Of a stretch of 64,000 nucleotides of DNA, positions 2,643-63,283 are shown piece by piece. This DNA comes from Fidelibacterota bacterium (GTDB taxonomy: Bacteria; Fidelibacterota; Marinisomatia; Marinisomatales; TCS56): positions 59,800-123,799 of the forward strand of contig JBDRBK010000115.1 in NCBI GenBank assembly GCA_043822705.1. The letters are read 5' to 3'. The translations under genes were made by a program, and so were the position numbers. Every line of letters begins with the position of its first letter. Within the stretch, counting starts at the first letter, position 1. The notes below the pieces were generated by a model. The model was not told the DNA's origin. It did no database searches and saw nothing but the letters and a program-made list of their open reading frames with translations.

Positions 2643-3877
2643 AAATGGATTTTATGAAAATCAAACACCAGGCCGAATTTTACCGGTTCGACATGGTCCG
2701 CTTTCTGCGGGACATGATCGCGATTCCCGGTGAAAGCGGCCAGGAGGCAGCGGTGATTAAACGGGCCGCCGAGGAAATGGAAAAAGTCGGCTTCGACCGC
2801 ATCGAGATCGACGATTTCGGCAACCTGCGCGGCTGGCTGGGGCATGGCAAACACCTGATTGCCATGGACGGCCATATCGACACGGTAGGCGTCGGCAATC
2901 GTGCCAACTGGGAGTTCGATCCCTATTCCGGTAAAGAGGATGATGACTGTGTCTATGGTCGCGGCGCCTCCGATCAGGAAGGCGGGATTGCAGCGATGGT
3001 CTATGCCGGAAAAATTATCAAGGACCTGGGTCTGGAGGATGACTATACCCTGGTGGTAACGGCCACGATCCAGGAAGAGGACTGTGACGGTCTTTGCTGG
3101 CAGTATATCATCGATAAGACCGGACTGCGGCCGGAGTTCGTGGTGATCAGCGAACCGACCTCGTGCCGGGTCTACCGCGGCCAGCGCGGCCGGATGGAAA
3201 TCAAGGTCAGCACCAGCGGAATCAGCGCCCACGGTTCGGCGCCGGAACGGGGCGATAACGCTATTTACAAGATGGCGCCGATCCTGGCCGAACTGGAGCA
3301 GTTGAACGGTCGCCTGGCCGATCACGATTTTCTGGGCAAGGGATCGCTGACAGTGTCGGAAATTTTCTTTTCGTCACCCTCGCGCTGCGCCGTGGCCGAT
3401 GGCTGCTCGATCTCGATCGACCGACGCCTGACCTTCGGCGAAACCATGGAATCGGCCCTGGCCGAAATCCGGTCCCTGCCGGCGGTCCAAAAAGCCGGTG
3501 CCGAAGTGGCGCTCTACGATTACGACCGGCCGTCCTATCGCGGCGTCCGCTACCCGACCGCCTCCTATTTTCCGACCTGGTTGATCGACGCCGATCATCC
3601 CGCCACCCGGACCGTGGTGGATGCTTACCGCGGACTGTTCGGCAACGAACCGCTGGTCGACAAATGGACATTTTCCACCAACGGTGTAGCAATCATGGGC
3701 AAGTACGGGATTCCCTGCATCGGTTTCGGTCCCGGCCACGAAGACCAGGCCCACGCTCCCAACGAGCGCACCTGGAAAGAAGAGCTGGTCACCGCCGCCG
3801 CCGTCTACGCCACCATCCCCAAAATTTATGTGAACAATTATGCTGCTGGTGCCAAAACCGGAAGCGAGCTGGAGTAA
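2639..3877 (+). CDS. ygeY: YgeY-family M20 hydrolase (selenium metabolism-linked)
   Basis: [58 protein letters not shown] overlaps the ssnA stop (ATGA); start could be 2645. Confidence 0.92.
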
Positions 3878-3879
3878 CT

Positions 3880-6349: not shown

Positions 6350-6368
6350 TGACTGACAGAGCAGCGGA

Positions 6369-7616
6369 ATGATGGAACTGGAGCAACGTTTGCAAGGCTA
6401 TCGCTGTCTGGAGTGTGGCAAGCTCCAGCCGCCGGAGCCATTCCCCTATACCTGCGGCAGTTGCGGCGCCAATCTGGACGCCGTTTATAATTATGATGTG
6501 ATCGGCCGACACTGGGATCGGCCGAGACTGGCCGGCACTCGCGATCGATCGCTGTGGCGCTACGCTCCCTTGTTACCGGTTATCGAACCGCTGGCTGGTT
6601 GCTCAATTCAGGTGGGCGGCACACCGCTGGTGGCGGTTCCCCGCCTGGCCGATGAAATTGGTATAACAAACCTGTGGATCAAGGATGATACGCGCAATCC
6701 TTCGGGCAGCCTGAAGGACCGGGCCTCGGAGGTCGGTCTGTGTCATGCCGCCGAAGCGGGACTCGAGACACTGGTGACCGCCTCCACCGGCAATGCAGCA
6801 GCCTCCCTGGCAGCCCTGGCGGCTTATCACGGCCGGCAGGCGGTGATTCTGGCCCCGGCTGACGCACCACCGGCCAAGCTGACCCAGATTCTGCAATATG
6901 GCGCGACCCTGTGTCCGGTGGACGGCAGCTATGACGATGCCTTCGATCTGGCCACGGTAGTTGCCGGTCACTTCGGCTGGTACCTGCGCAGCACCGGGAT
7001 CAACCCGGTCATGTCGGAAGGGAAGAAAACCGTTGCCCTGGAAATCGCCGAACAACTGGACTGGCAGGTGCCCGATTTCATCTTCGTGCCGGTGGGCGAC
7101 GGCTGCATCATCGGCGGTGTTTTCAAGGGATTCTTTGACCTGCTGCAGCTGGGTTGGATCGACCGGCTGCCACGGATCGTGGCGGTGCAGGCCGAGGGAT
7201 CGGCGGCGATCGTGCGGGCTCTGGAGGCGAATTCTGAAATTGTGGCGGTAGCGGCCAACACGGTGGCGGACAGCATCGCCGTTGACCTGCCCCGTGACGG
7301 ATTGAAAGCGCTACGGGCGGTGCGGGAATCAGATGGATTCGGAATCGTCGTCAGCGATGAAGCGATTTTACAGGCTCAGAAGAAGTTAGCGGAGACGACC
7401 GGTATTTTCGTCGAACCGGCTGCCGCCGCCGCCTTCGCCGGATTATTGCGTGCCCGCGAAGGTGACTTGATTAAAAGCGGCGAATCGGCGGTTGTACTGG
7501 CCACCGGCAGTGGACTGAAGGATATTGCCGCGGCTCAAAGAATACTATCCATCCCGGCTGCCATCCGGCCGGATATCGAATCATTTGTACAATTTATTGA
7601 AACGACCAGTAGGTAG
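6369..7616 (+). CDS. Threonine synthase-like PLP enzyme with N-terminal Zn ribbon
   Basis: CLECG...CGSCG, GGTPL, NPSGSLKDRAS, ASTGNAAASLA, VPVGDG, EPAAAA, TGSGLKD. Confidence 0.88.
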   Translation: MMELEQRLQGYRCLECGKLQPPEPFPYTCGSCGANLDAVYNYDVIGRHWDRPRLAGTRDRSLWRYAPLLPVIEPLAGCSIQVGGTPLVAVPRLADEIGITNLWIKDDTRNPSGSLKDRASEVGLCHAAEAGLETLVTASTGNAAASLAALAAYHGRQAVILAPADAPPAKLTQILQYGATLCPVDGSYDDAFDLATVVAGHFGWYLRSTGINPVMSEGKKTVALEIAEQLDWQVPDFIFVPVGDGCIIGGVFKGFFDLLQLGWIDRLPRIVAVQAEGSAAIVRALEANSEIVAVAANTVADSIAVDLPRDGLKALRAVRESDGFGIVVSDEAILQAQKKLAETTGIFVEPAAAAAFAGLLRAREGDLIKSGESAVVLATGSGLKDIAAAQRILSIPAAIRPDIESFVQFIETTSR

Positions 7617-7623
7617 CGAACTG

Positions 7624-8106
7624 ATGCTGTTTTCCGATAAACCCGAGTATTTTGACCTCAGCGTCACCATCAATGGCAAGTTGATCCGGCGAACGGTCCT
7701 GACTCACCTGCGCCTGCTGGATTTCTTACGGGATGACCTGCGCCTCACCGGCGCCAAGGAAGTCTGCGGCGAAGGTGAATGCGGTGCGTGCACCGTGATC
7801 CTGGATGGAAAAACGGTCAATTCCTGCCTGATCCTGGCGGTTGAGACCCACGGTTCGACAATTCAGACGATTGAGGGAATGACACCGGCCAGTGGATTTA
7901 CGGAATTGCAGAAGTCTTTCGTTGACCAGCATTCGGTCCAGTGCGGCTACTGCATTCCCGGAATGGTGCTGTCGGCGGATCAATTGCAGCGTGATTGTAA
8001 CAATCCTGACCACGAAGCTGTGAAGGAGGGGTTGACCGGGAATATCTGCCGCTGTACCGGTTATAAGAAAATTATTGCTGCCGTAGAAAAGGGGTCGGAC
8101 GGATGA
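7624..8106 (+). CDS. Xanthine dehydrogenase-family (2Fe-2S)-binding subunit
   Basis: CGEGECGACTV, NSCL, QCGYCIPG, GNICRCTGY. Confidence 0.93.
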   Translation: MLFSDKPEYFDLSVTINGKLIRRTVLTHLRLLDFLRDDLRLTGAKEVCGEGECGACTVILDGKTVNSCLILAVETHGSTIQTIEGMTPASGFTELQKSFVDQHSVQCGYCIPGMVLSADQLQRDCNNPDHEAVKEGLTGNICRCTGYKKIIAAVEKGSDG

Positions 8107-8939
8107 AATATTACCGGCCCGAAACGACGGCACAGTTATTCACCCTGTTGACTGATATACCGGCTAATCGCCGGACCCTGCTGGCGGGAGGAACCGATCT
8201 GCTGCCGCGTTATGAAAATGGATCAGCGCTGCCGGATAATCTGATCGATTTGAAAAAAATACCTGACTTCTGTGGGATAACCGAGTTTAGCGACCGGATC
8301 GAAATCGGCGCGCTCACTACGATCGAAATACTGAAAAATAACGCGCTGGTCCGTGATCATTTTCATGGCCTCTGGCTGGCGACGACCCAATTCGCCGGTG
8401 TGCAGATTCGACACCGGGCCACCCTGGGCGGCAATATCGTTAATGCATCACCGGCCGGCGATACATTGCCGGCACTTTACGCACACCGGGCGAAGCTGCG
8501 TCTAATCGGTCCTACGGCAGAGCGGGAAGTAGCGATCGCTGATTTTATATCCGGTCCCGGCAAAACTATCACCAGGGAGGATGAAATTCTGCAGGCCGTA
8601 ATCCTGCCGAAAAGCGCCGGCTTTTCCACCTTTTATAAGCTGGGACTGCGCCAGACAATGGCCATTTCGGTGGTGAATTTTGCCCTAGTCGGAAAGATTA
8701 TGTCCGGCGGATTCACTAATCTGACGATCGCCGCCGGGGCGGTGGCGCCGACGGTGAAATACCTTTTCCGGTTCAGCACTACTGTAGTGCAAGAAGGCCG
8801 CTCACTCGGCGATAGTATCGACCTGGTCGATGCGGACATCGCTCCGATTGATGATATCCGGGCTTCGGCTGACTACCGCCGCCGGGCACTGAAAAATGTG
8901 CTGGTGTTTACACTGCAAGAATTGGTGAATAAAGGATGA
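8103..8939 (+). CDS. Xanthine dehydrogenase-family FAD-binding subunit
   Basis: LAGGTDL, IGALTT, QIRHRATLGGNIVNASPAGD, PIDDIRASADYRR. Confidence 0.93.
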   Translation: MKYYRPETTAQLFTLLTDIPANRRTLLAGGTDLLPRYENGSALPDNLIDLKKIPDFCGITEFSDRIEIGALTTIEILKNNALVRDHFHGLWLATTQFAGVQIRHRATLGGNIVNASPAGDTLPALYAHRAKLRLIGPTAEREVAIADFISGPGKTITREDEILQAVILPKSAGFSTFYKLGLRQTMAISVVNFALVGKIMSGGFTNLTIAAGAVAPTVKYLFRFSTTVVQEGRSLGDSIDLVDADIAPIDDIRASADYRRRALKNVLVFTLQELVNKG

Positions 8940-8961
8940 CAGAGCAATGCTGCAGTTCAAA

Positions 8962-9263
8962 TTCGACCCCTTCAGGGTCATGGCCTCTGTGCAGAGGTAC
9001 TATCGGTTGCGCCGATAGTTATTCATATTCAATCCCTGCAGGATTGTTCTCTGGTACAATGCAAAGTAGGTTTTGCTGGAGTTTGACCCCTTCCAGGTCA
9101 GAGCCTCTGTGCAGAGGCCCTATCGGCCACACCGATAGTTATTCATATTCAATCCCTCCGGGATTGCTCAAACGGTGTTATACCGATTTCGAAAACTCCG
9201 AAGGAGTTTAATGTGAATAGACGGTTAAATTTGAATAATACGACAACCCCGGAGGGGTTGAAT
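8962..9263. repeat. Palindromic REP/STIR-like repeat cluster left of the Y1 transposase
   Basis: Two ~85-bp units (8962-9046, 9082-9166, period 120) of the form TTyGACCCCTTCAGGGTC...CCTCTGTGCAGAGG..TATCGG.....CCGATAG TTATTCATATTCAATCCCT..GGATTG, then an oppositely oriented unit ending CAACCCCGGAGGGGTTGAA (~9193-9262). Confidence 0.9.
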
Positions 9264-9268
9264 AAATA

Positions 9269-9715
9269 GTGTCAACATATACGCAAATATATTATCATAT
9301 CATTTTTTCGACTAAAAACAGGGTGCCCTGCCTTAAAGAAGCGGGCCGTGATGAATTATTCAAATATATCTGGGGTATTGTTAAAAATAAGGATTGCCAC
9401 CTGTATCGAATTAATGGCGTTGAGGACCACGTTCATATATTGATTAGCCTGAAACCAGCGGTTGCCCTCGCTGATTTGGTTAAAGATATTAAGGTAGCAA
9501 CCTCAATTTGGATAAAAGAACGGAATATTTTTCCACGATTCGAAGGCTGGCAGGGGGGATATGCCGCCTTTACATATGCGGACAAAGATAAAAACACCGT
9601 AATCAATTATATAAAAAACCAGGTTGAACATCATCGGAAGAGAAGTTTCCGCGAAGAGGTCGAAGCTCTGTTAAAAGAACATGGTGTTGATGTTGATGAA
9701 AGGTTTTTGGTTTGA
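9269..9715 (+). CDS. tnpA: IS200/IS605-superfamily Y1 (HuH) transposase, REP-associated type
   Basis: YYHIIFSTKNR, HuH motif DHVHIL, WQGGYAAF, catalytic YIKNQ..HH; no tnpB; AT-richer than neighbours. Confidence 0.92.
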   Translation: MSTYTQIYYHIIFSTKNRVPCLKEAGRDELFKYIWGIVKNKDCHLYRINGVEDHVHILISLKPAVALADLVKDIKVATSIWIKERNIFPRFEGWQGGYAAFTYADKDKNTVINYIKNQVEHHRKRSFREEVEALLKEHGVDVDERFLV

Positions 9716-9892
9716 CCCATTCAGGGTCATGGTCTCTGTGCAGAGGCGATATCGGTTGTGCCGATAGTTATCCAGGTTCAATCCCTTCGGAATTGCTCAA
9801 ACGGTGTGATACCAATTTCGAAAACTCCGCAGGAGTTTTATGTGAATAGACGATCAGATTGGAAAGAAACGGCAATCCCGGAGGGGTTGAAT
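9711..9892. repeat. Direct, diverged copy of the 9082-9263 palindromic block, right of the transposase
   Basis: Same unit, linker CTCAAACGGTGT.ATACC.ATTTCGAAAACTCCG.AGGAGTTT, and inverted unit, at an offset of 629 bp. Confidence 0.9.
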
Positions 9893-9898
9893 TAAACC

Positions 9899-12800
9899 AT
9901 GTCCGATAAATTATTCACCTGCCCGATCGATCGACTGCTGAGCTGGATACTGGCCGAGGAGCGTCAGGGATCAATCTTTGGCATTGATAAGAACCTGTTT
10001 TTTATGCCTGCCGCCACCGATCCGTTCCGGATGCGGCGTTACGACCAGCTTCTGGAAACACCTGTCGGTGTGGCGGCGGGTCCCCACACCCAGCTTTCCC
10101 AGAATATTATATCCGCCTGGCTCACCGGCGCCCGCTACATCGAACTGAAAACCGTCCAGACATTGGATAAAATCGAGGTCGCCAAACCCTGCATCGATAT
10201 GCAGGACGAAGGCTACAACTGCGAATGGTCCCAGGAATTGAAACTGCGCCGGTCCTTCGACCAGTACCTGGATGCCTGGATTCTGATTCATGTTCTCCGC
10301 CGGCATTTCGGCTGGGAGTTCGGTATCGGTCCCGGTGTCATCTTCAACATGAGCGTGGGTTATGATCTGGCCGGTATTAAAAACGCCAATGTCCAGGAAT
10401 TCCTCGATTTAATGGAGAACTGCCAGCCATTGCTGGAAGCCAAACTGGAACAGATTGAAACAATCTATCCGGCCACTCATGACTTAGGAATAGCGTCCCG
10501 TCTGTCCGATAACGTGACCCTGTCCACCATGCATGGCTGTCCACCAGATGAGATCGAGCGAATCGCCCGCTATTTGATTGAAGAACGCCGCCTGCACACG
10601 GCGGTGAAACTGAATCCGACTCTGCTGGGACCCGACAATCTGCGGCAAATCCTCACCAGCAATCTGGGCTTCAGGAATATCACCGTTCCCGATCAGGCTT
10701 TCGAGCACGATCTGAAATATGATCAGGCTCTCACAATTATTCGCAATTTGCAAGCCAGCGCCGGAAAAGCGGGGGTGGAATTCGGACTGAAACTCACCAA
10801 CACACTGGAAGTACTGAATCAGAAGGAATTGTTTCCCGGTAGCGAGGAGCAGGCGTACCTGAGTGGTCGCGCGCTCCATCCCCTGAGTGTCAACTTGGCT
10901 GCTAAACTGCAGACTGAATTTGATGGCGCTTTGGATTTATCGTTTTGCGCCGGTGCCGACTGTTTTAATATCGCTGATCTCGTTGCCTGCGGACTGGCCC
11001 CGGTTACCACCTGCTCCGACCTGCTCAAGCCGGGAGGCTATGGCCGGTTGAAACAGTATATCGGCCAACTTGCGGATCGATTCTCCAAGCGGTCAGCGGT
11101 CAGCGTTGAAGATTTTATCAATATTACAGCCGGGCATCCCGGCTCAACCAGTCAGGCCGCGCTGAAGAATCTACAGGCTTACGCCAAAGTTGTGCTCACT
11201 AATGATAGCTACCAGCGGGAATCACCGTTCTACCCGTCGGTGAAAACCCTCAAGCCGCTTCCGGTATTCGATTGCATTTCCGCCCCCTGCACCGCGGCCT
11301 GCGCTACCGATCAGGGTATCCCGGAATACATGTACCACACCGCCAAAAGCGATTTCGATCGGGCTTATGCCACAATTTTAAAGACCAACCCGTTGCCAGG
11401 TATTACCGGTTATGTCTGCGATCACCTGTGCCAGACCAAATGCACCCGCATCAACTACGACCGGCCGCTGCTGATCCGGGAAATCAAACGTTTTGTCACC
11501 GAACACGGTCAGACCGGGAATACACCTATAAAGATCACCTCGAATGGCAAACAAGTAGCCGTTATCGGTGGAGGACCATCGGGATTGTCATGTGCCTATT
11601 TCCTGGCATTGCAGGGTTTTGCAGTGGAAATATTTGAAGCCAAGGCCAACCTGGGCGGCATGGTTTCCGGGGCGATTCCACGGTTTCGACTGGGCGATGA
11701 CAGCGTTCAAAATGATCTCAATCTAATCACCGGACTGGGCGTGCAAATCCATTACAGCCGTACTATTGATCAGGACGAATTCCAGCGCCTGCAGACCGAA
11801 TATGACTATGTCTATCTGGGTCTGGGGGCCCAGGCCAGCCGCAAACTGAATATCCCCGGTGAAGACCACAACCGGGTTTTGGATCCCCTGAAATTTTTGT
11901 CCGCCGTGAAGAATGGTATATCCCTGCCGATGGGGTCGGAAGTAATTATTATCGGCGGTGGTAACACCGCCATGGATGCCGCCCGCACCTCGTTACGATT
12001 GGTCGGTGAAGGGGGAACAGTGACCATCGTTTATCGGCGCACCATCGACCAGATGCCGGCGGACTGGGAAGAGGTGGCGGCCGCCCAAGCAGAGGGGATT
12101 GCCATCCACGAGTTGCTGGCGCCGGTTTTTATTGAAGAACAGGGCGGTAAGTTGGTACTGATCGTACGCCGCATACGACTGGGTGCCAAAGACAGCAGCG
12201 GACGTCCCCGGCCGGTGGATATTCCCGGCAGCGATTTCGCATTGGACTGTGATTACCTGATTCCCGCCGTGGGGCAGTCGGTGGCAGTGGATTTTCTGGA
12301 TGATGCCGATTTGCGGGTTGATCCGCGGACCAAGGCTACCAGCCGGCCAAAGGTATATGCCGGTGGTGACGCCGTCCGGGGGGCCTATACCATCATCGCC
12401 GCCGTGGGCGACGGCCAGCGCGCCGCTGCTGCAATTGGTGAACAGGTCACGGGGACTACGGTTAATTTTGATACGGGCCTGGCCGGAAAAGCGTCGGCGG
12501 AAGTACAAGCTCAGCGCTTTGCTACGCGCGATTATGGTTCGATAACCAGCGGATTTGAACCGCACCACGATCGTCCGGTCAAGACATTGCTGACGTCGGA
12601 ACAGGCCTGGACCGAGGCCGCCCGCTGTCTGTACTGTGACGAATTTTGCGATATCTGCGTTACCGTCTGCCCCAACCGCGCCAACCTGGCTTATCCGGTG
12701 GATAAGATCGCCATTGATATTCCGATTGTTACGCAATTAGGCGGCAAAACCGCAATCAAAGCAGGCAGCCGCTTGATAGTGGATCAGCCGACCCAGATCG

Positions 12801-13192
12801 CCAATATTGCCGATTTCTGTAACGAATGCGGCAACTGTACGACGTTTTGTCCCACCGCCGGTGCCCCCTGGCGGGACAAACCGCGCATCTGCCTGTCGGA
12901 GGCCGGTTTCGCCGACCTGGTCGAAGGTTATTACCTGCGGCTGGACCGGCTGGACTTCAAATCTCCCGCCGGCAGCACCAGTTTGCAAATCATAGACGAG
13001 CAACTGGTCTGGGAAACACCTCAATTGACGGTGACATTTGACAAAAAGACATTGGAATTGACCCGGGTGGACTGGAAAACAACACCCGACCAATCAATCT
13101 CACTGGAGCCGGCGCTGAGAATGGCGGTTATCTGGAAAGGGTTGCGTGAAATATCGATATCCGGTTTACCATTGATAAACCAGGAGCACTGA
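9899..13192 (+). CDS. ygfK: YgfK-family Fe-S flavoprotein oxidoreductase (putative selenate reductase subunit), long form
   Basis: GVAAGPHTQLSQNI, ELKTVQ, DEGYNCEWSQEL, STMHGCPPDEIE, KLNPTLLG, GLKLTNT; GltD-like GGGPSG and GGGNTAMD; CDICVTVCPNRAN and CNECGNCTTFCP ferredoxin motifs. Confidence 0.93.
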   Translation: MSDKLFTCPIDRLLSWILAEERQGSIFGIDKNLFFMPAATDPFRMRRYDQLLETPVGVAAGPHTQLSQNIISAWLTGARYIELKTVQTLDKIEVAKPCIDMQDEGYNCEWSQELKLRRSFDQYLDAWILIHVLRRHFGWEFGIGPGVIFNMSVGYDLAGIKNANVQEFLDLMENCQPLLEAKLEQIETIYPATHDLGIASRLSDNVTLSTMHGCPPDEIERIARYLIEERRLHTAVKLNPTLLGPDNLRQILTSNLGFRNITVPDQAFEHDLKYDQALTIIRNLQASAGKAGVEFGLKLTNTLEVLNQKELFPGSEEQAYLSGRALHPLSVNLAAKLQTEFDGALDLSFCAGADCFNIADLVACGLAPVTTCSDLLKPGGYGRLKQYIGQLADRFSKRSAVSVEDFINITAGHPGSTSQAALKNLQAYAKVVLTNDSYQRESPFYPSVKTLKPLPVFDCISAPCTAACATDQGIPEYMYHTAKSDFDRAYATILKTNPLPGITGYVCDHLCQTKCTRINYDRPLLIREIKRFVTEHGQTGNTPIKITSNGKQVAVIGGGPSGLSCAYFLALQGFAVEIFEAKANLGGMVSGAIPRFRLGDDSVQNDLNLITGLGVQIHYSRTIDQDEFQRLQTEYDYVYLGLGAQASRKLNIPGEDHNRVLDPLKFLSAVKNGISLPMGSEVIIIGGGNTAMDAARTSLRLVGEGGTVTIVYRRTIDQMPADWEEVAAAQAEGIAIHELLAPVFIEEQGGKLVLIVRRIRLGAKDSSGRPRPVDIPGSDFALDCDYLIPAVGQSVAVDFLDDADLRVDPRTKATSRPKVYAGGDAVRGAYTIIAAVGDGQRAAAAIGEQVTGTTVNFDTGLAGKASAEVQAQRFATRDYGSITSGFEPHHDRPVKTLLTSEQAWTEAARCLYCDEFCDICVTVCPNRANLAYPVDKIAIDIPIVTQLGGKTAIKAGSRLIVDQPTQIANIADFCNECGNCTTFCPTAGAPWRDKPRICLSEAGFADLVEGYYLRLDRLDFKSPAGSTSLQIIDEQLVWETPQLTVTFDKKTLELTRVDWKTTPDQSISLEPALRMAVIWKGLREISISGLPLINQEH

Positions 13193-13277
13193 GTGCCGCG
13201 AGGATTATCGTATGCATCCTTATCGCTGCAGTATCCGCTGTGCCGCCGTGGTAAAAATAGCTTAAATTAAACGAATT

Positions 13278-14684
13278 ATGTCGCGAATATTAATCAAGAA
13301 CCCGCTCCTGGTCGCCACTATGGATGACCGCCGCCGGGAATTTCACGGCGGCCATATACTAGCCGAGAACGGCATTATCACAGCGCTGGGACCGGAACCT
13401 GCGGACCTGTCCGCCGATGAAGTCATCGATGCCGTCGGGATGGTAGTTCTTCCGGGACTGGTTAACACACATCATCATTTTTACCAAACCCTGACCCGCA
13501 ATATCCCGCTGATGCAGAACCAGCCCCTGTTCGGCTGGCTCACCAACCATTACCAGGTCTGGCGCGAACTCACCGCCGAGGCGGTGAGCATCAGCACTAA
13601 AACGGCCCTGCTGGAATTGATGAAATCCGGTTGCAGCACCAGTTCCGACCACCTGTACCTGTTCCCGGCCCGGGAGACCGGTAAGTTGATCGATGCCCAG
13701 ATTGCCGCCGCCCGTGAAATCGGTACCCGTTTTCACGCCACCCGCGGTTCGATGTCGCTGGGAAAATCGCAAGGTGGTTTGCCACCGGATGACACGGTTC
13801 AGACCGAGGCGGAAATCCAGGCCGACACCGAACGGTTGCTGAAAACCTATCATGACGACGGGGAAGGAGCCATGATCCGCCTGGCCCTGGCGCCCTGCTC
13901 GCCGTTTTCAGTCACCCCGGAATTGATGCGTGCGGCTGCTGAATTCGCCCGTGCTAACAATTTGCAGATTCACACCCACCTGGCGGAAACCCTGGATGAG
14001 GAAAAATTCTGTCTCGAAACGTACGGAAAACGTCCCGCCGATTACGTGGATTCCCTGGGCTGGATCACCGATTTTGCCTGGTTTGCCCATTCAATATTCC
14101 TGAATGATGATGAAATCAAGCGGCTGGGCGCCACCGGTGCCGGCGTCAGTCACTGCCCTTCATCCAACATGCGGCTGGGCTCGGGCATCGCCCGTGTCCG
14201 GGAAATGCTGGATGCCGGCGTCAAGGTATCACTGGGGGTGGACGGTTCCGCCTCCAATGACGGCAGCAACCTGCTGGCTGAAGCGCGGCAGGCGCTGTTG
14301 ATTTCCCGCTTGCGTGAAGAGCAATACTGGCTCACCGCCCGCGATGTGCTGGCAATCGCCACCCGCGGCGGCGCCGCTGCTTTGGGTCGCAGTGATATCG
14401 GCGAGCTGGCGGTGGGCAAACGGGCCGACCTGGCCCTGTTTTCCGTGACCGGACTCGAGTATGCCGGCGCCCTGTCCGATCCCCTGGCGGCGCTGGTATT
14501 TACCGTGCGGCAGTCGCCGGTGGACTACCTGCTGGTCGAGGGCGTGATCCGGATTCGGAACGGGCGCAGTCAGGTCGACGAACGCCAACTGGCGCAAACC
14601 CATAACCGGCTGGCGGCCCGGATGCTGGAACAGGCCGGCGCCAGGACCGGTATCGATTTTCGGCAGCAGGAAGGTGATAGATAA
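13278..14684 (+). CDS. 8-oxoguanine deaminase-like amidohydrolase
   Basis: NTHHHFYQTLTR, SDHLYLFP, RFHATRGSMS, APCSPFSVT, HTHLAET, HCPSSNMRLGSG, GVDGSASND. Confidence 0.9.
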   Translation: MSRILIKNPLLVATMDDRRREFHGGHILAENGIITALGPEPADLSADEVIDAVGMVVLPGLVNTHHHFYQTLTRNIPLMQNQPLFGWLTNHYQVWRELTAEAVSISTKTALLELMKSGCSTSSDHLYLFPARETGKLIDAQIAAAREIGTRFHATRGSMSLGKSQGGLPPDDTVQTEAEIQADTERLLKTYHDDGEGAMIRLALAPCSPFSVTPELMRAAAEFARANNLQIHTHLAETLDEEKFCLETYGKRPADYVDSLGWITDFAWFAHSIFLNDDEIKRLGATGAGVSHCPSSNMRLGSGIARVREMLDAGVKVSLGVDGSASNDGSNLLAEARQALLISRLREEQYWLTARDVLAIATRGGAAALGRSDIGELAVGKRADLALFSVTGLEYAGALSDPLAALVFTVRQSPVDYLLVEGVIRIRNGRSQVDERQLAQTHNRLAARMLEQAGARTGIDFRQQEGDR

Positions 14685-14687
14685 CCT

Positions 14688-15410
14688 ATGTGGTCTTCGC
14701 TGAAAACCATTCACGTTCCGATTTCACTGGCTGCGGCCGCTGAGCTGGCGGTAAAACGCGGTCATGCCGTATTCGCCGGTGGCAGTTACCTGGCCGCGGA
14801 GCGCGATCCGGCCGTCACCACGCTGGTGGACATCAATCATCTGATCACGAGAAAAATCAAGGTCACCAAAGGACAAATCCGCTGTGGCGCCGGTGTCAGT
14901 TTACAGCAGTTGATCGACCAGCTGGAGACCGCAGACGACTTAAAACTGGCGACCGCCGCCCGCTGGTCCTGCGCCTCGAAAAATATCCGCAACCAACGCA
15001 CCATCGGCGGTGAAATCAGTCGCAGCCGGACCGATTCCGAGCTGGTGGTTCTGCTGCAGGCGTTGGCAGTCCGACTTGACCGGGCCGGTGACCGGATTAT
15101 TACCGAGTTAATCATTGAACATAACGATGTCGGCGCCGTTGCTCTTGAGCGTTTCGCGCTGTTGCCGTCGGCGCCGGCCTTTGTCATTGTCGCTGCCGTA
15201 CGGCGGAAGCATAATTATGATATTGCCGTTGGCGGCAGCGCAACCACGATCACTACTGCCGCAGTGGTGAAATCGGATTTCACCGACGACTGGATCGACA
15301 GCTTCGCCAGGGCGGTGGCCGGAAAATTCCGGGCCGATGAGGTCGGTTCCCGGAAATATAAACAATCCGTGGTCGCCACCGGCCTGCGGCGGGCGCGAGG
15401 GGTCTTATGA
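14688..15410 (+). CDS. YgfM-like FAD-binding subunit of a molybdenum hydroxylase (short, divergent)
   Basis: FAGGSYL, GAGVSLQQL, NIRNQRTIGG, DEVGSRKYK; precedes Fe-S and Mo subunits. Confidence 0.75.
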   Translation: MWSSLKTIHVPISLAAAAELAVKRGHAVFAGGSYLAAERDPAVTTLVDINHLITRKIKVTKGQIRCGAGVSLQQLIDQLETADDLKLATAARWSCASKNIRNQRTIGGEISRSRTDSELVVLLQALAVRLDRAGDRIITELIIEHNDVGAVALERFALLPSAPAFVIVAAVRRKHNYDIAVGGSATTITTAAVVKSDFTDDWIDSFARAVAGKFRADEVGSRKYKQSVVATGLRRARGVL

Positions 15411-15844
15411 CCATCGAATTTATCTTGAATGACCGGCGCGTTGCAGTTGAAGCGGAGCCGGGCGCCAACCTGTTGGAAATGCTGCGGGAGCGGGGTTTGT
15501 TCAGCGTCAAGCATGGCTGCGATCACGGCGAATGCGGCGCTTGCACCGTGCTGCTGGACGAACGGGCCGTTAATGCCTGCCTGGTGCTGGCTTTTTCAGT
15601 GGCCGGGAAGAGGGTGGAGACGGTGGAGAAATTCAGCAGTCACGACCACTTGCACCCGCTGCAGGAAAAATTCATCGCCAGCGGGGCGATCCAGTGCGGT
15701 TTCTGCACGCCGGGGATGATCCTGGCGCTGGAAGCGCTACGGCGGGAGAAAGCGAATCCCACCGAAAGCGACGTCCGCGATGCCCTGGCCGGCAATCTCT
15801 GCCGTTGTACCGGCTACGTTAAACCGGTGGAGGCGGCCCAATGA
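15407..15844 (+). CDS. (2Fe-2S)-binding subunit of a molybdenum hydroxylase
   Basis: GCDHGECGACTV, NACL, QCGFCTPG, GNLCRCTGY. Confidence 0.93.
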   Translation: MTIEFILNDRRVAVEAEPGANLLEMLRERGLFSVKHGCDHGECGACTVLLDERAVNACLVLAFSVAGKRVETVEKFSSHDHLHPLQEKFIASGAIQCGFCTPGMILALEALRREKANPTESDVRDALAGNLCRCTGYVKPVEAAQ

Positions 15845-18126
15845 AGGTGATCGGCCAACAGACCGCCCGCATCGACGGCCGTGCCCTGGCTACCGGTCAG
15901 CCGGTATTCGCCGACGATATTGAATTAAAAAACGTGCTGCACTGTAAGGTGTTGCACAGCACCGTGGCGCATGCCCGGATCAAAAAAATTGATGCCGGCC
16001 GCGCCCTGCGGCGGCTCGGGGTGGTGGCGGTCTATACGCATGCCGATTTTCCGCGGCATTATTACACCACCGCCGGTCAGGGGTATCCCGAACCGGGTCC
16101 CCGGGATTACCGCATCCTGGACGACACCGTCCGCTACGTGGGTGACCGGGTGGCGTTGGTGGTGGCCGAATCGCTGGCCGCTGCCGAAGCTGCCTTGACG
16201 GCAATTGCCGTGGAATATGAAGAATTACCGGCGGCATTCGACCCGCGCGAAGCGCTGAACGGTAAGGTGGTAATCCATCCCGAGGCAGGCAAGACCGGCA
16301 TTCACGAAGTCGGCCGCAACGTTGCCGCCCACATCAGCGCCGAAGTTGGCGATGTGGAGGCGGCATTCAAGTCGGCACCCCACGTATTTGCCGGGGAATA
16401 CAGTACGCCCTTCGTCCAGCAGGCCCATATCGAACCGCATATCTGCCTGAGCTGGCGCGACGAGCACAACCGGATCGTGATTCGGACCGCCACCCAGGTA
16501 CCCTTTCATGTGCGGCGGATCGTGGCCGAGGTTCTGAATATACCCGTGGGACAGGTGCGGGTGATCAAGCCCCGGATCGGCGGCGGCTTCGGCGGCAAAC
16601 AGGAAATATTGAACGAGGAACTGGTGGCGGCGGTGACGCTGAAAACCGGTCGTCCGGCCCGGCTGGAATACACCCGGGAAGAGGAATTTTACGCCGCCCG
16701 CTGCCGGCACCCGCAGATCACCAATTTCCGGATCGCCGTGGATGACGACCACTGCATCCAGGCCATCGACCTGAAAATACTGGAAAACACCGGCGCCTAT
16801 GGCGCCCATTCACTGACGGTGATGTCGGTGACGGCCCAGAAGACGCTGTCGCTGTATCGGGCACCCAATCTGCGGGTCCACGGCGATGCGGTCTACACCA
16901 ACCTGCCGATCGCCGGGGCCTACCGTGGCTATGGCGCGCCCCAGGGTTTTTTCGGCCTGGAATCGCTGCTGGATGAGATTGCCGATCAATTGGGCATCGA
17001 TCCGGTGGAATTTCGCCATAAGAATTATGTGCGGGTGGGCGACGACCTGCCGATTGCCGCCATTCTGGGCGAAGGCCGGGAGGGTTACCCGGCCCAGGTG
17101 CGCTCATCGGGATTGCGGGAGTGCCTGGAGGAAGGCAAAAAACTGATCGGCTGGGACAAACTGCGCAACGCCGCCAGGAGCGGTGCGATCCGGCGCGGCG
17201 TCGGCGTGGCGGCGGTGGGGCAGGGCAGCGGGATTCCCGGGATCGACATGGGTTCGGCCTTTATTAAAATGAACGAGGACGCCAGTTTCAACCTGCTGGT
17301 GGGCGCCACCGACCTGGGGACCGGCTCCGACACGGTGCTGGCCCAGATCGCCGCCGAGGAACTGGGCGTAGCGGTGAATAAAATCATTGTCTACTCGTCG
17401 GACACCGACCACACCCCCTTCGATACCGGCGCCTATGCTTCCAGCACGACTTACATCTCCGGGGCGGCCGTCAAAAAAGCGGCGGCGGCGGTGAAACGGC
17501 AGATTCTGGAACTGGGTAAAAAGTTATTGTCCGTGGATCAGGCGGAAATCCGGGACGGGCAGGTAGTGGCCCCGGGTGGCGAGAGCATATCCTTTGGAGA
17601 AATCTGCACCAAAACCTTTTATACTGATGAGCAGACCCAGATCATGGCCACCGCCAGCCACTTGAGTTTCGATTCGCCCTCGCCCTACAACGCCACATTT
17701 GCCGATGTGAGCGTCGATACCGAAACCGGGCTGGTAACCGTGAACAAGGTGGTATCGGTGACTGACATCGGCCAGGTGATCAACCCGCAGATGGCGGAGG
17801 GGCAGACCGAAGGGGGCATCCCCCAGGCGTTGGGGATGGCGTTGACCGAATTCATGGTTTTCGACGATAAAGGCCGGCCGCGGAATACCGACTTCAACCG
17901 TTACCATATTTACACAGCCATCGATATGCCTGAGATCGTGGCCCGATTCATCCCTACCCACGAGCCCACCGGACCCTACGGCGCCAAGGCGGCGGCGGAG
18001 ATACCGATCAATGGTCCCGCCCCGGCGGTGCTGAATGCGATTTACAATGCCTGCGGGGTGCGGATTCGGGAGCTGCCGGTCACGCCGGAGAAGGTGCTGG
18101 CGGGATTAGTGAGGAGTAATAAGTAA
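15841..18126 (+). CDS. xdhD: XdhD-like molybdopterin-binding subunit
   Basis: YTTAGQGYPEP, QQAHIEPH, RIGGGFGGKQ, GAYRGYGAPQG, GATDLGTGSDT, FDTGAYASSTTY, GAKAAAEI. Confidence 0.88.
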   Translation: MKVIGQQTARIDGRALATGQPVFADDIELKNVLHCKVLHSTVAHARIKKIDAGRALRRLGVVAVYTHADFPRHYYTTAGQGYPEPGPRDYRILDDTVRYVGDRVALVVAESLAAAEAALTAIAVEYEELPAAFDPREALNGKVVIHPEAGKTGIHEVGRNVAAHISAEVGDVEAAFKSAPHVFAGEYSTPFVQQAHIEPHICLSWRDEHNRIVIRTATQVPFHVRRIVAEVLNIPVGQVRVIKPRIGGGFGGKQEILNEELVAAVTLKTGRPARLEYTREEEFYAARCRHPQITNFRIAVDDDHCIQAIDLKILENTGAYGAHSLTVMSVTAQKTLSLYRAPNLRVHGDAVYTNLPIAGAYRGYGAPQGFFGLESLLDEIADQLGIDPVEFRHKNYVRVGDDLPIAAILGEGREGYPAQVRSSGLRECLEEGKKLIGWDKLRNAARSGAIRRGVGVAAVGQGSGIPGIDMGSAFIKMNEDASFNLLVGATDLGTGSDTVLAQIAAEELGVAVNKIIVYSSDTDHTPFDTGAYASSTTYISGAAVKKAAAAVKRQILELGKKLLSVDQAEIRDGQVVAPGGESISFGEICTKTFYTDEQTQIMATASHLSFDSPSPYNATFADVSVDTETGLVTVNKVVSVTDIGQVINPQMAEGQTEGGIPQALGMALTEFMVFDDKGRPRNTDFNRYHIYTAIDMPEIVARFIPTHEPTGPYGAKAAAEIPINGPAPAVLNAIYNACGVRIRELPVTPEKVLAGLVRSNK

Positions 18127-38538: not shown

Positions 38539-38948
38539 TGATCGCCTACCAGTATCATACGCGGGTCTTCTACCGGGACGTGGACCAGATGGGAGTAGTC
38601 TATTACAGCCGCTACCTGGAGTATTTTGAGGCCGCCCGCACGGAATTACTGCGCAGCTATGGCCTGAACGTAACGGATATTGAGTCCCGGGGATTTTTCC
38701 TGCCGGTTTTAACCAGCCACTGCGAATATCATTCCCCGGCCCGGTTCGAAGAAGAACTAGTTGTACATACCGTTATCCCGGCCCTGCCGCGGGCCCGGCT
38801 GCGGATTGAATATCAAGTGCGCTCCCGGGATGGCGTCCGACTGCATGCCAGCGGTTATACCGAACACTGTTTCACCGATCGCGATGGTCGGGCGGTCCGG
38901 CCGCCACAGTTTTTCCTGGCCGCACTGAGAAAGATGCTGCCGGCATGA
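38538..38948 (+). CDS. YbgC/FadM-family acyl-CoA thioesterase
   Basis: RVFYRDVDQMGVVYYSRYLEYFEAARTE. Confidence 0.9.
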   Translation: MIAYQYHTRVFYRDVDQMGVVYYSRYLEYFEAARTELLRSYGLNVTDIESRGFFLPVLTSHCEYHSPARFEEELVVHTVIPALPRARLRIEYQVRSRDGVRLHASGYTEHCFTDRDGRAVRPPQFFLAALRKMLPA

Positions 38949-39685
38949 GCAACGAACTGTTATTTATCCTCCAGACCATCATCGGACTCAGTTTTACGCT
39001 GATCGCTTTCCGGCTCGGAAAAATCTGGCTGTACGGATATATCGCCATGGCGATTGTGCTGGCGAATATTTTCGTCACCAAGCAATTTGACCTGTTCGGA
39101 CTGTCCGCCACCGGCGGTAACGTGGTCTACGGATCGATTTTCCTCGTGACCGATCTGTTGTCGGAGCACTGGGGCCGGGCCGCTGCCCGCCAGGCCGTGG
39201 TGATCGGATTTTTCGCGGCCCTGTTTTACCTGGTCATGTCGCAATTTATCCTGCAGTTCACGCCCAATTCGGTCGATTGGGGCGCCAGTGCCGGCATGGA
39301 GGCGATTTTCTCCGCCGGACCGGCCATCGTGATCGCCAGTCTGGTAGCCTACCTGGTATCCCAGTTTCACGACGTCTGGGCCTTCCACCTGTGGAAGACC
39401 AAACTGGATGGTCGCCATCTCTGGTTGCGTAATAACCTGAGCACTATGGTCAGTCAGGCCCTGGACAGCCTTATTTTCGCCGGATTAGCGTTCGCGATTC
39501 TGCCGGCGCTGTTCGGTCGGACCGAGAATATTTTACCATCGGCGGCGCTGACGGAAGTGATTATCACCACCTATTTATTCAAACTGCTGGTGGCAGTGAT
39601 TGACACACCGTTTCTATATTTGAGCTATCGTCTGCAACCGGCCGAACTGCGTAATGGCGCGGTCCGGCCCCAGGAATCCGATTGA
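38945..39685 (+). CDS. yhhQ: Queuosine precursor transporter (YhhQ/Vut_1 family)
   Basis: ANIFVTK, GSIFLVTDLLSE, ASLVAYLVSQFHDV, LWLRNNLSTMVSQALDS, DTPFLY. Confidence 0.9.
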   Translation: MSNELLFILQTIIGLSFTLIAFRLGKIWLYGYIAMAIVLANIFVTKQFDLFGLSATGGNVVYGSIFLVTDLLSEHWGRAAARQAVVIGFFAALFYLVMSQFILQFTPNSVDWGASAGMEAIFSAGPAIVIASLVAYLVSQFHDVWAFHLWKTKLDGRHLWLRNNLSTMVSQALDSLIFAGLAFAILPALFGRTENILPSAALTEVIITTYLFKLLVAVIDTPFLYLSYRLQPAELRNGAVRPQESD

Positions 39686-39711
39686 ACGGAACCGAAAAAT
39701 CAGGAGAAATG

Positions 39712-40749
39712 ATGAAGAAATCCCTTCTTTGGACCGGAGTACTGCTGTTGATCGCCTGTACGACCAAGGCGCCCCAATATCCCTGGGCGAATCTGACGTT
39801 CCCGGAAGCCCAGGCCGCTGCCGGTGAAAAGCTGATCATGCTGGACTTTTACACCGAATGGTGAGGGTGGTGCAAACGGCTGGATGCCGATGTATTCCCC
39901 GATCAGAATGTGATCGATTTCGCCGCTGAAAATTTAATCAGCCTGAAAATTGATGCCGAAAAAGATGCCGGCCCGGAGCTGCGTGATCGTTTTCGTCTGC
40001 CAGGCTATCCCACAATTGTATTCACCAACGCCGCCGGCAACGAAGTGGACCGGATCGTCGGTTATCGTCCGGTCGATATTTTCCTGGCCGAGTTGACCAG
40101 AATCCGGGCTAACCGCGGCACCATTGCCGACCTGACTGCCCGCTTCGAGGCCAGTCCCGCGACCGACTCGCTGGCGGTGCGGATTGCGGAAAAATATGAG
40201 GAGCGCCAGGATCGGCTGGCGGCGCTGTCTTACTGGTTGAAGGCGCTGAATATCCCCGATGGCGATCAGGAAATGGCCCGTTACCGGGTCGCTTCCAATC
40301 AAACCCTGCTGACAGAATCGGACCGGTCCCTGAAGGAATATCTGGCCAGTAGTGCCGATGAGACTTATTTCGCCGATGCCTATAATGTACTGCAGCGGTT
40401 TTACCGTAGTCAGAAGGACACGTCAGCCGAAGTGGATATCTATGTCCGGTTGATGGAATTTCTGGAGCACGAGTCCGCCGCCACTTCCGCCGATCTGAAC
40501 GGCTATGCCTGGCGGATGTCGCAACTGGGAATCAACCTCGAAGACGCTCTGATTAAGATTCGTAAAGCGGTCGCTCTGGCTGCTGACAAATTGCCGGAAG
40601 ATCGGGCCGGCTTAATGGATACGGAAGCGGAGGTGCTCTGGAAACTGGGGCGTAGCGCTGAAGCGCTGGCGATCATCGAACAGTGCATCAAACTTCAGCC
40701 GGAAGACCAGTATTTCAAGGATCAGAAAGCCAAGTTTCAGAAACAGTAA
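39712..40749 (+). CDS. Selenocysteine-containing thioredoxin-fold lipoprotein with C-terminal TPR-like repeats (345 aa, Sec at residue 51; TGA 39862-39864 recoded)
   Basis: AGGAG RBS; lipobox LIAC; DFYTEW-TGA-GWCKRLD in frame with the 39910-40749 ORF; GYPTIVF cis-Pro loop; SECIS-like hairpin follows. Confidence 0.88.
39865..39900 (+). promoter_or_regulatory. Putative bacterial SECIS element
   Basis: GGGTGG-TGCA-aa-CGGC-[TGGAT]-GCCG-a-TGTA-TTCCCC. The apical loop starts 16 nt after UGA and has G at loop position 2. Confidence 0.75.
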
Positions 40750-40774: not shown

Positions 40775-40809
40775 CGGATGCCATCAGCCGGTTGGGCTGA
40801 TGGCATCCG
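40775..40809. terminator. Perfect 15-bp hairpin between convergent genes (bidirectional terminator or REP)
   Basis: CGGATGCCATCAGCC-GGTTG-GGCTGATGGCATCCG. Confidence 0.65.
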
Positions 40810-44024: not shown

Positions 44025-44832
44025 GGTGATTATGCATTTTTCGGACCAAGTGTTGAATTCATTTGGTTATGCTGGAAATCATTAGAAAAATAATAGCTGG
44101 GAAACAGTGTCCGAAATGTGGTCATAAAACGTTGTACGTACTTAAAGACAAGCGCTTCAAATGTAGTGGGTGCAGCCACAAATACAGTCCCAGTCCGATT
44201 GCGAAGGACCTCCAACTTCTTCATTACTTCAGCTTGGAAATTCCGGCCAATAAAGCATCCAAAGACCTTGGTTGGAGTTACCACAAGGTTAAAAACCACT
44301 ATATGAATTACCGCCTGGATATTTTTGATTATCTGGTAGAGGAATATCGTAAACTGTCTGGTGAAATTGAATGTGATGAATCTTATTTTGGTGGACGAAG
44401 AAAGGGACCACGGGGACGTGGTTCTCGAGAGAAAGTAAAGGTATTCGGGATGTTGGAACGTCAGGGTAGAATACTCACCGCAATTGTTGATAACGTCTCT
44501 GCCGAAACTCTTATGAATGAGATCAGACAACATGCTGAAAAAGGAAGTGTGTTTTACACTGATAAGTTTAAATCCTATAAATCTTTGAGATTTTACGGCA
44601 AACATCTCACAGTTGATCATGGGAAAGAATTTGGGAATGGAAGACGGCATATTAATGGACTTGAAGGCTTTTGGTCCTTTGCCAAAGAAAGACTTTTGAA
44701 GTACCATGGAGTTAGTAAATCCTACTTCCATTTATACCTCAAAGAAATGGAATTCAGGTATAACTACAGAAAGGAAAATCTCTATCAAAAACTGGTCAAT
44801 ATTCACTTTGGTCCGAATTTTAACTAATTACC
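44025..44832 (+). mobile_element. IS1595-family insertion sequence (808 bp) with imperfect terminal inverted repeats and 8-bp TSD TTGTTTTT
   Basis: Left end GGTGATTATGCATTTTTCGGACCAAGTG; right end reverse-complemented GGTAATTAGTTAAAATTCGGACCAAAGTG; TSD at 44017-44024 and 44833-44840. Confidence 0.93.
44063..44827 (+). CDS. IS1595-family transposase
   Basis: Zn finger CPKC..CSGC, ECDESYFGG, GPRGRG, YTDKFKSY, HINGLEGFWS, YLKEMEFRYN. Confidence 0.95.
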   Translation: MVMLEIIRKIIAGKQCPKCGHKTLYVLKDKRFKCSGCSHKYSPSPIAKDLQLLHYFSLEIPANKASKDLGWSYHKVKNHYMNYRLDIFDYLVEEYRKLSGEIECDESYFGGRRKGPRGRGSREKVKVFGMLERQGRILTAIVDNVSAETLMNEIRQHAEKGSVFYTDKFKSYKSLRFYGKHLTVDHGKEFGNGRRHINGLEGFWSFAKERLLKYHGVSKSYFHLYLKEMEFRYNYRKENLYQKLVNIHFGPNFN

Positions 44833-60847: not shown

Positions 60848-63283
60848 CTAATCGCATTTGGAGTAGCCGCAATCATGACAGACCAGACAACCGGCTTCGT
60901 ATTTCAGGCTGTTGCCGCTGCATTTCGGACAGACTTCAAATTTGAACGGCATTTCCGCCGGTTGACTTTCCTTTGGTTCCGGGGTCACCTTTTTTCGGGG
61001 ATTGTTGACGAAGGCGAAATGATGGGTGTTCAAATCTTCTTCCTGCTTAACCTTGCGGGCTTTGATATAATCATCCAGCGCTTTCCCAATGGCGTCGGGC
61101 GTTGACAGGATCAGTTGACCGTCCTCCCAGGTTGGATTGGGTCCACTGATACCTTTCAGTTGTTTGACGATTGCGATCGGCTCGATGCCGGAACGCAGGG
61201 ATAGCGAGATCAGGCGGCTGATGGCCTCCGATTGAGCAGCGGCATGACCGCCGGCTTTGCCAATGGTGGTGAATACTTCACAGAGGCCGTTGTCATCTTC
61301 ATTGATTGTGATGTACAGCGTCCCTTCACCGGTTTGGATCCGCCGCGTAATGCCGGAGGTGACGATCGGACGACGGCGCGGCATCGCCGAAACAGGTTTG
61401 GCGGCCGGCTTGGTTGCCTCGGCCGTTTTCTGCTGGTCAGTCGCCGATTTGTTTTCCTTGTCACTGACCAGAATGCCTTCCCGCGAACCTTCACGGTAGA
61501 CGGTAATACCTTTCAGGTTGGCCTTGTAGGCGGTCATGTAGATATCGGCCACTGTTTCAACTGCCACATCCTTGTCAAGATTGACGGTCGAAGAGATCGA
61601 GCTATCGATATATTTCTGAATCACACCCTGCATTTTGACCCGGAAATAGGGATCAATATTATGAGCGGTCACTATATAATCCGGCAGATTGCTGTCATCG
61701 CCAAATAATTTGGCAATGACCGGATGGAATACTTTGTACTCCTTGAAACTGTCTCCGGAACCGCTATTTTTTTTCACCCGACGCGTGTAGGAAGTGCTGA
61801 ATATGGGCTCGATGCCCGAGGTGACCCGGGCGACGATCGCCCCGCTGCCGGTCGGCGGCACCGTTAAAACGGTAGCATTTCTGATCCCATACTGTTCGAT
61901 ATCATTCCGGATCGCCTTGGGCAGATTTTTTACAAATTTACTTTTACCGTACTGTTCCCAGTCGAAATTCGGGAAGGATTTTTTGTCGCGCCCGATGACA
62001 ATCGATGCTTCGTAGGCCGAATCGCGGAAAATCTGGCAGACCTGATCCACCGTCTGCAGGGCATCTTCACTATCGTAGCGGATTCCCATCCTGACCAGCA
62101 TATCGCCAAGACCCAGCAGGCCCAGGCCGATCCGTCGATCCTGAATGGCATTTTCCTTTTGATTCGGCAGGGCGTGCCGCTCGATATTATAATCGATAAC
62201 ATTGTCCAGGAAGCGGACCGCCGTCGCCACCGTTTCCTTGAATTCGGGGATCATGAAGTTGCCATTCTGATCGACAAAGCGGTCCAGATTCACCGAACCG
62301 AGATTACAGCAGCCGCCGTCCGGCAAGGGTTGCTCGGCGCAGGGATTGGTGGATACCAGCGGGCTGCAGTATTCGGCATTGTGATATTCGCGCATCGTGT
62401 CCCAGAATATAATCCCCGGTTCGGCACTGCGATGAGCGGCGGTTATTATTTTGTTCCATAATTCCAAAGCTTCGACGGTTTTGTAAACCTGGTTGTTCCA
62501 GCGCAGATCAAATTGTTTTTTACCCTCGACAGCCTGCATGAATTCATGGGTTATCAGGACCGAAATATTGGAATATTTGACTTTATCGATATTATTATGC
62601 TTGATATTGATAAATTTTTCAATATCAGGATGGTCGACCCGCAGGGTCTGCATGTTGGCGCCGCGGCGGCCGTGCTGGGCGATCGTATTGGTGTTTTCGC
62701 TGAACAGGTTCATGAACCCGACCGGACCGCAGGATTCGCCACCGGTCCCGCCGATTACTTCGCCGGAAGGCCGCAGTACCGATAAATCATGACCGCAGCC
62801 GCCACCATATTTATAGGTCAGCGCTTCATCATGAATGGTTTTATAGATCGCCTCAATCGAATCGCTTTGTACGGCGACTACATAACAATTATTCAAAGTC
62901 GTATTAATATCGTCACGACCGGCGCCATGCATGATCCTGCCGCCCGGTACGAAGCGGAAATCCTCCAGGATCGAGAAAAATTTGTCGGTCCACTCCAGCC
63001 GTAGCTTTTCATTTTTTTCGACACCGGCGATTGCTGACGACAAACGTTTCCACAGGTCCCATGGATGGCGTTCCCAGGGTGCCAGATATTTCTTTGTTAA
63101 AACATCCAGACCGAGTTCATCGTTCTTGTAATAATTATGCAGCCGGTACTTATCGGGCACATCCCGGTCAAAAATATTTTCGGCAGCATTGGTGATTTCA
63201 CGCAATGCTTCACTAACCAATGGTTCAGCCGGTTTTGCCCCGGCATGCGAGACGGCGAAGTCTAGCTCAATCGCTTCAGCCAT
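60848..63283 (-). CDS. nrdJ: Adenosylcobalamin-dependent (class II) ribonucleotide reductase with C-terminal TSCPD-like domain and Zn ribbon
   Basis: FVPGGRI, NNCYV, RRGANM, TNPCAEQPL, CCNLGS, RRIGLG, VPPTG, SISSTVN, KGITVYR, CPKC...CHDCGYSKC. Confidence 0.93.
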   Translation of the reverse strand: MAEAIELDFAVSHAGAKPAEPLVSEALREITNAAENIFDRDVPDKYRLHNYYKNDELGLDVLTKKYLAPWERHPWDLWKRLSSAIAGVEKNEKLRLEWTDKFFSILEDFRFVPGGRIMHGAGRDDINTTLNNCYVVAVQSDSIEAIYKTIHDEALTYKYGGGCGHDLSVLRPSGEVIGGTGGESCGPVGFMNLFSENTNTIAQHGRRGANMQTLRVDHPDIEKFINIKHNNIDKVKYSNISVLITHEFMQAVEGKKQFDLRWNNQVYKTVEALELWNKIITAAHRSAEPGIIFWDTMREYHNAEYCSPLVSTNPCAEQPLPDGGCCNLGSVNLDRFVDQNGNFMIPEFKETVATAVRFLDNVIDYNIERHALPNQKENAIQDRRIGLGLLGLGDMLVRMGIRYDSEDALQTVDQVCQIFRDSAYEASIVIGRDKKSFPNFDWEQYGKSKFVKNLPKAIRNDIEQYGIRNATVLTVPPTGSGAIVARVTSGIEPIFSTSYTRRVKKNSGSGDSFKEYKVFHPVIAKLFGDDSNLPDYIVTAHNIDPYFRVKMQGVIQKYIDSSISSTVNLDKDVAVETVADIYMTAYKANLKGITVYREGSREGILVSDKENKSATDQQKTAEATKPAAKPVSAMPRRRPIVTSGITRRIQTGEGTLYITINEDDNGLCEVFTTIGKAGGHAAAQSEAISRLISLSLRSGIEPIAIVKQLKGISGPNPTWEDGQLILSTPDAIGKALDDYIKARKVKQEEDLNTHHFAFVNNPRKKVTPEPKESQPAEMPFKFEVCPKCSGNSLKYEAGCLVCHDCGYSKCD

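Follow-up and report, generated by a model that had tools for sequence, protein, structure and literature searches.

The nearest described relatives of the gene reported here lie among the 22 entries headed 'Trx-like 2' in Dataset S1 of the 2008 GOS paper (PMC2398784). Compared by eye, 14 of the 22 entries belong to the present family, with U in place and a shared motif (for example, DFETDWUTWCDRLD, which also occurs in our homologues G041 and G060), and some are nearly identical around the site to homologues analysed here. Most of these entries have a signal peptide and Cys, and three or four reach the conserved tetratricopeptide repeat (TPR) helices. The entries are reads without a taxon, and the heading also lumps unrelated proteins; the terms 'TPR', 'tetratricopeptide' and 'periplasm' are absent from the main text of that paper. 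This by-eye match indicates that marine members of the family were already predicted as selenoproteins in 2008.

A 2026 catalogue (PMC13188914, Table 1) lists a 'thiol:disulfide interchange protein' family (PF13098, UxxC), with Geobacter WP_011366075.1 as its representative. Our protein can be likened to it by domain and motif, sharing a PF13098-type domain with UxxC (U-G-W-C here); 'tetratricopeptide', 'lipoprotein' and 'Marinisomat' do not occur in the main text of this review. Precedent for exported selenocysteine (Sec) comes from SaoB, SaoC and SaoX, which have signal or lipoprotein signal peptides (bioRxiv 10.1101/2022.07.06.499078; also in the catalogue) but unrelated folds, in an ABC-transport system of anaerobes. 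Our literature searches returned no paper on the present family, which the supplements of the review and of the bioRxiv preprint could list. The chemistry and the recoding are themselves well known. What is new here is that the family is spread over the Marinimicrobia phylum, that it has switched between Sec and Cys at least 10 times in genomes with selA, and that a sister subfamily bears a different hairpin; of these additions, we consider the repeated switching and the second hairpin the most valuable.

The window analysed here is a 64,000-nucleotide stretch of one contig from a Fidelibacterota bacterium. The first-pass annotation had reported that the open reading frame (ORF) track breaks a gene at a TGA in a thioredoxin active site, and translation of 39712–40749 (+) confirmed both frame and motif: the 345-residue frame has a single internal stop, TGA 39862–39864 at codon 51, which on read-through is flanked by LDFYTEW and GWCKRLDADVF and gives the site motif W-U-GWC. 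The gene and its surroundings have the following features:

39702–39706, + strand: Shine–Dalgarno-like AGGAG, 5 nt ahead of the ATG at 39712, read directly from the sequence
39712–40749, + strand: whole gene with TGA read as Sec, 345 aa, ending at TAA; full-length homologues exist
39712–39759, + strand: lipoprotein signal peptide by sequence pattern, with lipobox LIAC at residues 13–16 (Cys16 at 39757–39759)
39775–40116, + strand: thioredoxin-fold domain, approximately residues 22–135, with Asp45, U51-G-W-C54 and Tyr-Pro100
39862–39864, + strand: in-frame TGA, predicted selenocysteine 51 (homologues: TGA in 90/113, TGC or TGT in 23/113)
39865–39900, + strand: bacterial SECIS hairpin, from fold, conservation, covariation and skewed codon use
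39871–39873, + strand: codon of the resolving Cys54, Cys in 113/113 homologues
40117–40746, + strand: TPR-like helical domain, approximately residues 136–345, from model, fold matches and invariant columns
40775–40809, no strand assigned: perfect 15-bp inverted repeat, 25 nt past the stop, probably a terminator between convergent genes

The only part of this gene in the ORF list is the 279-aa downstream frame (39910–40749). That annotation pipelines would miss the gene had been foreseen, and 82 of 120 database relatives do begin downstream of the codon, some of them possibly contig-edge fragments. The databases hold a truncated 'hypothetical' or 'TPR' protein that has lost its signal peptide and active site. 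The family is covered by no NCBIfam model; a model of its own would repair these records and correct the annotation of a gene that 110 of the 301 genomes sampled from a widespread, largely uncultured phylum carry. Calling of the downstream frame alone would fit a real stop at the TGA, the locus being a pseudogene, an assembly error, or two products, a 50-aa lipopeptide and a 279-aa TPR protein. Two public assembled contigs from related strains span the TGA codon; an RNA run gave two short matches away from the codon, uninformative on expression.

Among the 301 genomes drawn from the phylum, 110 match the N-terminal half of the protein at E 1e-22 or better, with one copy per genome at that threshold. 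Named relatives at 39–57% identity belong to Marinimicrobia/Neomarinimicrobiota, which we take to be the phylum now called Marinisomatota. We examined 114 loci, one per genome, of which 113 cover residue 51. Loci L034–L038 and L040 were left out of the codon tally, as were the distant loci L041–L068, all Cys, whose finding patterns themselves contained Cys. At codon 51 the 113 homologues have 90 TGA, 12 TGT and 11 TGC and nothing else, and the TGA homologues come from several classes. TGA or TGY at this codon, together with a conserved hairpin, is the pattern that the first-pass annotation had proposed looking for. A real stop is very improbable, since 90 genomes of several classes share this TGA at this codon, swapped only with Cys, in an otherwise intact frame followed by a covarying hairpin; in practice, conservation has already refuted it. 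Reading of the TGA as Trp or Gly under a variant genetic code is scarcely credible: we found no evidence supporting it, Cys is the sole alternative at the position, the UCA-anticodon tRNA is tRNA-Sec, and TGA is seen as a stop in the window, where the neighbouring gene (38945–39685) ends at one.

Three TGA homologues (L154, L169 and L170) end 82–90 residues past the codon and comprise the thioredoxin domain only, and one of them shares its active-site motif with a short GOS entry. The Cys form L029 (genome G036) keeps the hairpin intact, lacks the lipobox Cys and reaches a stop 25 residues past the site; it is either a recent pseudogene or an assembly error.

The published criteria for a bacterial SECIS (bSECIS) are a loop of 3–9 nt, an upper stem of 4–16 bp, G at loop position 1 or 2, a spacing of 16–37 nt and a minimum free energy of at most −7.5 (PMC13188914, section 5). 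A hairpin layout behind the UGA had been described in the first-pass annotation, and its coordinates, loop and spacing hold, in agreement with all of these criteria. The hairpin begins directly behind the UGA, and its conserved core is an apical stem of 4 bp (CGGC 39877–39880 with GCCG 39886–39889) that closes a 5-nt loop, UGGAU (39881–39885), starting 16 nt past the codon with G at position 2. The 40 nt behind the UGA fold at −17.1 kcal/mol (z −3.0, with 1 of 200 shuffles equally good; z −1.8 to −2.7 at other lengths). A hairpin by itself is weak evidence, because 1,850 of 46,413 genomic TGA codons pass a loose hairpin and length filter. A genome-wide selenoproteome scan by this filter proved too unspecific, only selD and the present gene being recognised among the passing hits listed.

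Comparison across homologues was more telling. The apical stem is fully paired in 77 of the 90 TGA genes versus 3 of the 23 Cys genes. Two-sided changes occur in all four stem pairs (18 cells versus 3.1 in shuffles, 0/500 as high, in a control not corrected for the relatedness of the sequences), and slid pairing partners pair worse than the true ones. The stem variants alter the protein, from RLDA to LLDA, QLDA, RLDV or RLDN, with pairing retained. Codon use in the stem is skewed, with CGG for the stem Arg in 63/80 versus 237/1,108 elsewhere in the same genes, and CTG in 76/90 versus 628/2,330. When stem and codon were compared on the tree, 9 of 11 independent TGA/Cys pairs had the stem with TGA, none went against and two showed no difference (sign test, p 0.004; the trait also counted the second hairpin described below, itself defined from the same sequences). 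Conservation of the lower stem is poor (69% pairing across all 13 pairs), so we claim only the apical stem as a conserved element. These comparisons show that the hairpin is under selection, and its natural compensatory variants suit tests of what SelB recognition needs. Of the 113 homologues, 90 have TGA at the codon and the remaining 23 have Cys; together with the covarying stem, this takes recoding beyond chance, and it is almost certain that the apparent stop codes for selenocysteine at the active site of a redox protein anchored in the membrane.

The genome (93% complete, 6% contamination) carries adjacent selA and selB, tRNA-Sec (selC) and two selD, so that all four genes named for checking in the first-pass annotation were found. 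The second selD, at G000:C46:15109–16035 (− strand; L005), carries a TGA in frame (UxxK), followed by a small hairpin 17 nt beyond it. A NifS-like cysteine desulfurase fused to SelD in Cys form, 732 aa in all, was seen at L004:1402–3600 (− strand; G000:C16); in the 2008 GOS paper a NifS–SelD fusion is given only for Geobacter sp. FRC-32, with CxxU (PMC2398784). Across the family, selA was found in 80 of the 83 TGA-bearing genomes tested (of 90), the three misses being genomes 71–85% complete, and in all 22 Cys-bearing genomes tested (of 23). Its presence discriminates little, because almost all genomes of the group have selA.

It had also been suggested that the organism uses selenium in two ways. 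This stands for the genome, which has both Sec and Se-cofactor traits: ygeY and ygfK (both above cut-off), ssnA-like and xanthine-dehydrogenase-like genes lie at window positions 1–18126, and yqeB and yqeC are on the same contig just before the window (L171, L172); selU was not found in the 93%-complete genome. A tie between this cluster and the present gene did not emerge. We rejected a functional link, as the selenium-linked Mo-hydroxylase cluster ends approximately 21 kb from the gene and does not figure among its recurring neighbours. The cluster (window 16–18126) also has a carbamoyltransferase gene.

In a 2006 study (PMC1794560), Sec-to-Cys changes are described as few and mostly in FdhA and SelD, and remnant hairpins are noted. 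The pattern in the present family thus has precedent, and the number of switches is high. In a quick tree of 107 rows, which left out 6 short rows, Cys rows are scattered among Sec rows, and 14 Sec/Cys changes are needed, 10 of them forced by well-supported branches; at least 10 switches fall in genomes that retain selA. Equal-cost parsimony on a set enlarged by 38 Cys database proteins needs 18 changes, and 3 gains with 15 losses ties with 13 gains and 5 losses. We infer that the changes were mostly losses, because an identical stem is common to 58 of the 90 TGA genes and three Cys genes keep the hairpin. If true, repeated loss is at odds with the rarity of Sec-to-Cys changes outside FdhA and SelD reported in 2006.

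A sister subfamily of 11 TGA genes from two distant families (L151, L156–L158, L160–L164, L167 and L168) has TGA at the same codon, lacks the main stem, and instead has a 5-bp hairpin with its loop starting 22 nt past the UGA, with a compensatory variant in two of the eleven genes. These genes group with Cys proteins, apart from the main clade. An AU test on 43 rows, with active-site and hairpin columns masked, rejects a single clade of both TGA groups (p 0.0002), the tested group having been chosen after inspection of the parsimony result. This fits an independent gain of Sec, although the subfamily may instead have kept an old Sec amid many losses. We give even chances to the fuller account, in which the family is a repeated natural experiment: Sec would have been fixed once in the main Marinimicrobia clade and lost some ten or more times in Sec-making genomes, the hairpin then decaying, and the sister subfamily would have gained Sec separately with a SECIS 6 nt further downstream, pairing dictating the amino acids after the site in both groups. 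The family also supplies naturally occurring Sec and Cys versions of a single envelope redox enzyme, which suit tests of the benefit of Sec in the periplasm.

The first-pass annotation had further predicted a lipobox with membrane anchoring and a thioredoxin domain with a TPR tail, and both predictions gained support. Cys stands at the distance matching that of the lipobox in 100 of 109 homologues with enough upstream sequence, and a few homologues have a signal without the Cys. The best Pfam match is PF13098 (48.4 bits versus a cut-off of 27), and Pfam TPR matches in the C-terminal domain fall below cut-off. The structure model (mean pLDDT 94, pTM 0.85) has a thioredoxin domain and TPR-like helices, an arrangement also backed by fold matches. 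The proline of the GYPT loop is Pro100, and the residue six before the site is acidic in 98 of the 113 homologues. The two central motif residues vary widely (SW, GS, TW, GG and others), and hence the motif leaves the direction of catalysis undecided. Cys325 is common in the family, but Ala or Ser frequently takes its place (58 C, 25 A, 4 S, 15 unmatched), and we therefore did not count it as redox-active.

Among the best matches of the thioredoxin domain are three proteins (Z 15.1–15.7, rmsd 2.0–2.2): chlamydial DsbH (PDB 2ju5; Z 15.7, rmsd 2.0, 112 aligned), DsbD gamma (1vrs; Z 15.1, rmsd 2.1, 110 aligned) and the Bacteroides putative disulfide isomerase 2kuc. Unlike the present protein, all three are Cys proteins and have no TPR domain. 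DsbH is described as a reducing oxidoreductase (PMC5193440); our protein scores 35 against a cut-off of 190 with the DsbH model NF043050, and is not a member. Nor does it belong with the selenoprotein TsoB (NF045694, a rhodanese/DsbD fusion), where it scores 62.8 versus 805 bits and matches the last domain alone.

These likenesses, with the export signal and the genome content, suggest a mechanism of three steps. SelB with Sec-tRNA would very likely bind the hairpin behind UGA51, inserting Sec. The protein would then likely be exported and lipidated at Cys16, so that the thioredoxin domain faces the cell envelope. There it probably acts as a disulfide reductase or isomerase: the TPR domain would hold a client protein, the Sec51 selenolate would attack a wrong or oxidised disulfide, Cys54 would resolve the mixed bond, and DsbD would re-reduce the Se–S bond with electrons from the cytoplasm. 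All three steps together, we consider a lipid-anchored envelope disulfide reductase or isomerase fed by DsbD a reasonably probable description of the protein. A three-domain DsbD is encoded in the genome, split over two contigs with overlapping ends and followed by a gene for a TlpA-type protein (L099 and L100; G000:C163 and C38), and is not a neighbour of the selenoprotein gene.

The genome also has a stand-alone VKOR-family ORF, so an oxidising route may exist, and a DsbA-like selenoprotein that introduces disulfides and is re-oxidised by VKOR deserves consideration; DsbB was not found in the 93%-complete genome. Sec lowers redox potential, which suits a reductase, and the model has a plain thioredoxin domain, with no DsbA among the listed fold matches. 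Introduction of disulfides is accordingly quite improbable.

YbbN is cytoplasmic and lacks a full CxxC. With this protein, CnoX/YbbN of E. coli (PDB 3qou), ours shares an architecture of a thioredoxin domain and then TPR helices, and YbbN and a Salmonella relative, likewise thioredoxin with TPR, stand at Foldseek ranks 1 and 3. The selenoprotein could then be mainly a redox-protective chaperone, its TPR domain holding unfolded envelope proteins while Sec shields their cysteines; the prolyl isomerases that neighbour the gene in one lineage would fit. We nevertheless find this unlikely, as the match to YbbN is architectural only (global superposition with TM 0.25, rmsd 23 Å and 15% identity), our protein has a signal peptide that sets it apart from the YbbN family, and the resolving Cys, invariant here, belongs to a motif that YbbN does not have in full.

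Many residues are invariant in the last helices (R268, M269, D303, T304, A306, E307 and L309), which, with the single copy per genome at the threshold used, could point to a reductase or assembly factor devoted to a single envelope complex (such as one in cytochrome c maturation or an outer-membrane machine), with a fixed partner on which the C-terminal TPR helices dock. Among the recurring neighbours, some clusters of which were scanned for families, we recognised no gene for such a partner, and a separate TlpA-type protein adjoins dsbD; we regard a dedicated factor as rather unlikely, and retain the DsbD-fed reductase or isomerase as the preferred reading.

Gene neighbourhoods vary by lineage. 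The neighbours met most often are accA and a probable thioesterase, in 33 genomes each, and they are uninformative on function; in 18 genomes a gene upstream falls in a cluster of which two members were scanned, both being peptidyl-prolyl isomerases. In the window, a queuosine precursor transporter lies directly upstream (38945–39685, + strand) and is not prominent among the recurring neighbours of the homologues. Further along, an ORF at 44063–44827 (+ strand) looks by eye like a transposase, presumably of the IS1595 family from its motif, and another at 60848–63283 (+ strand) resembles, again by eye, a class II (B12-dependent) ribonucleotide reductase.
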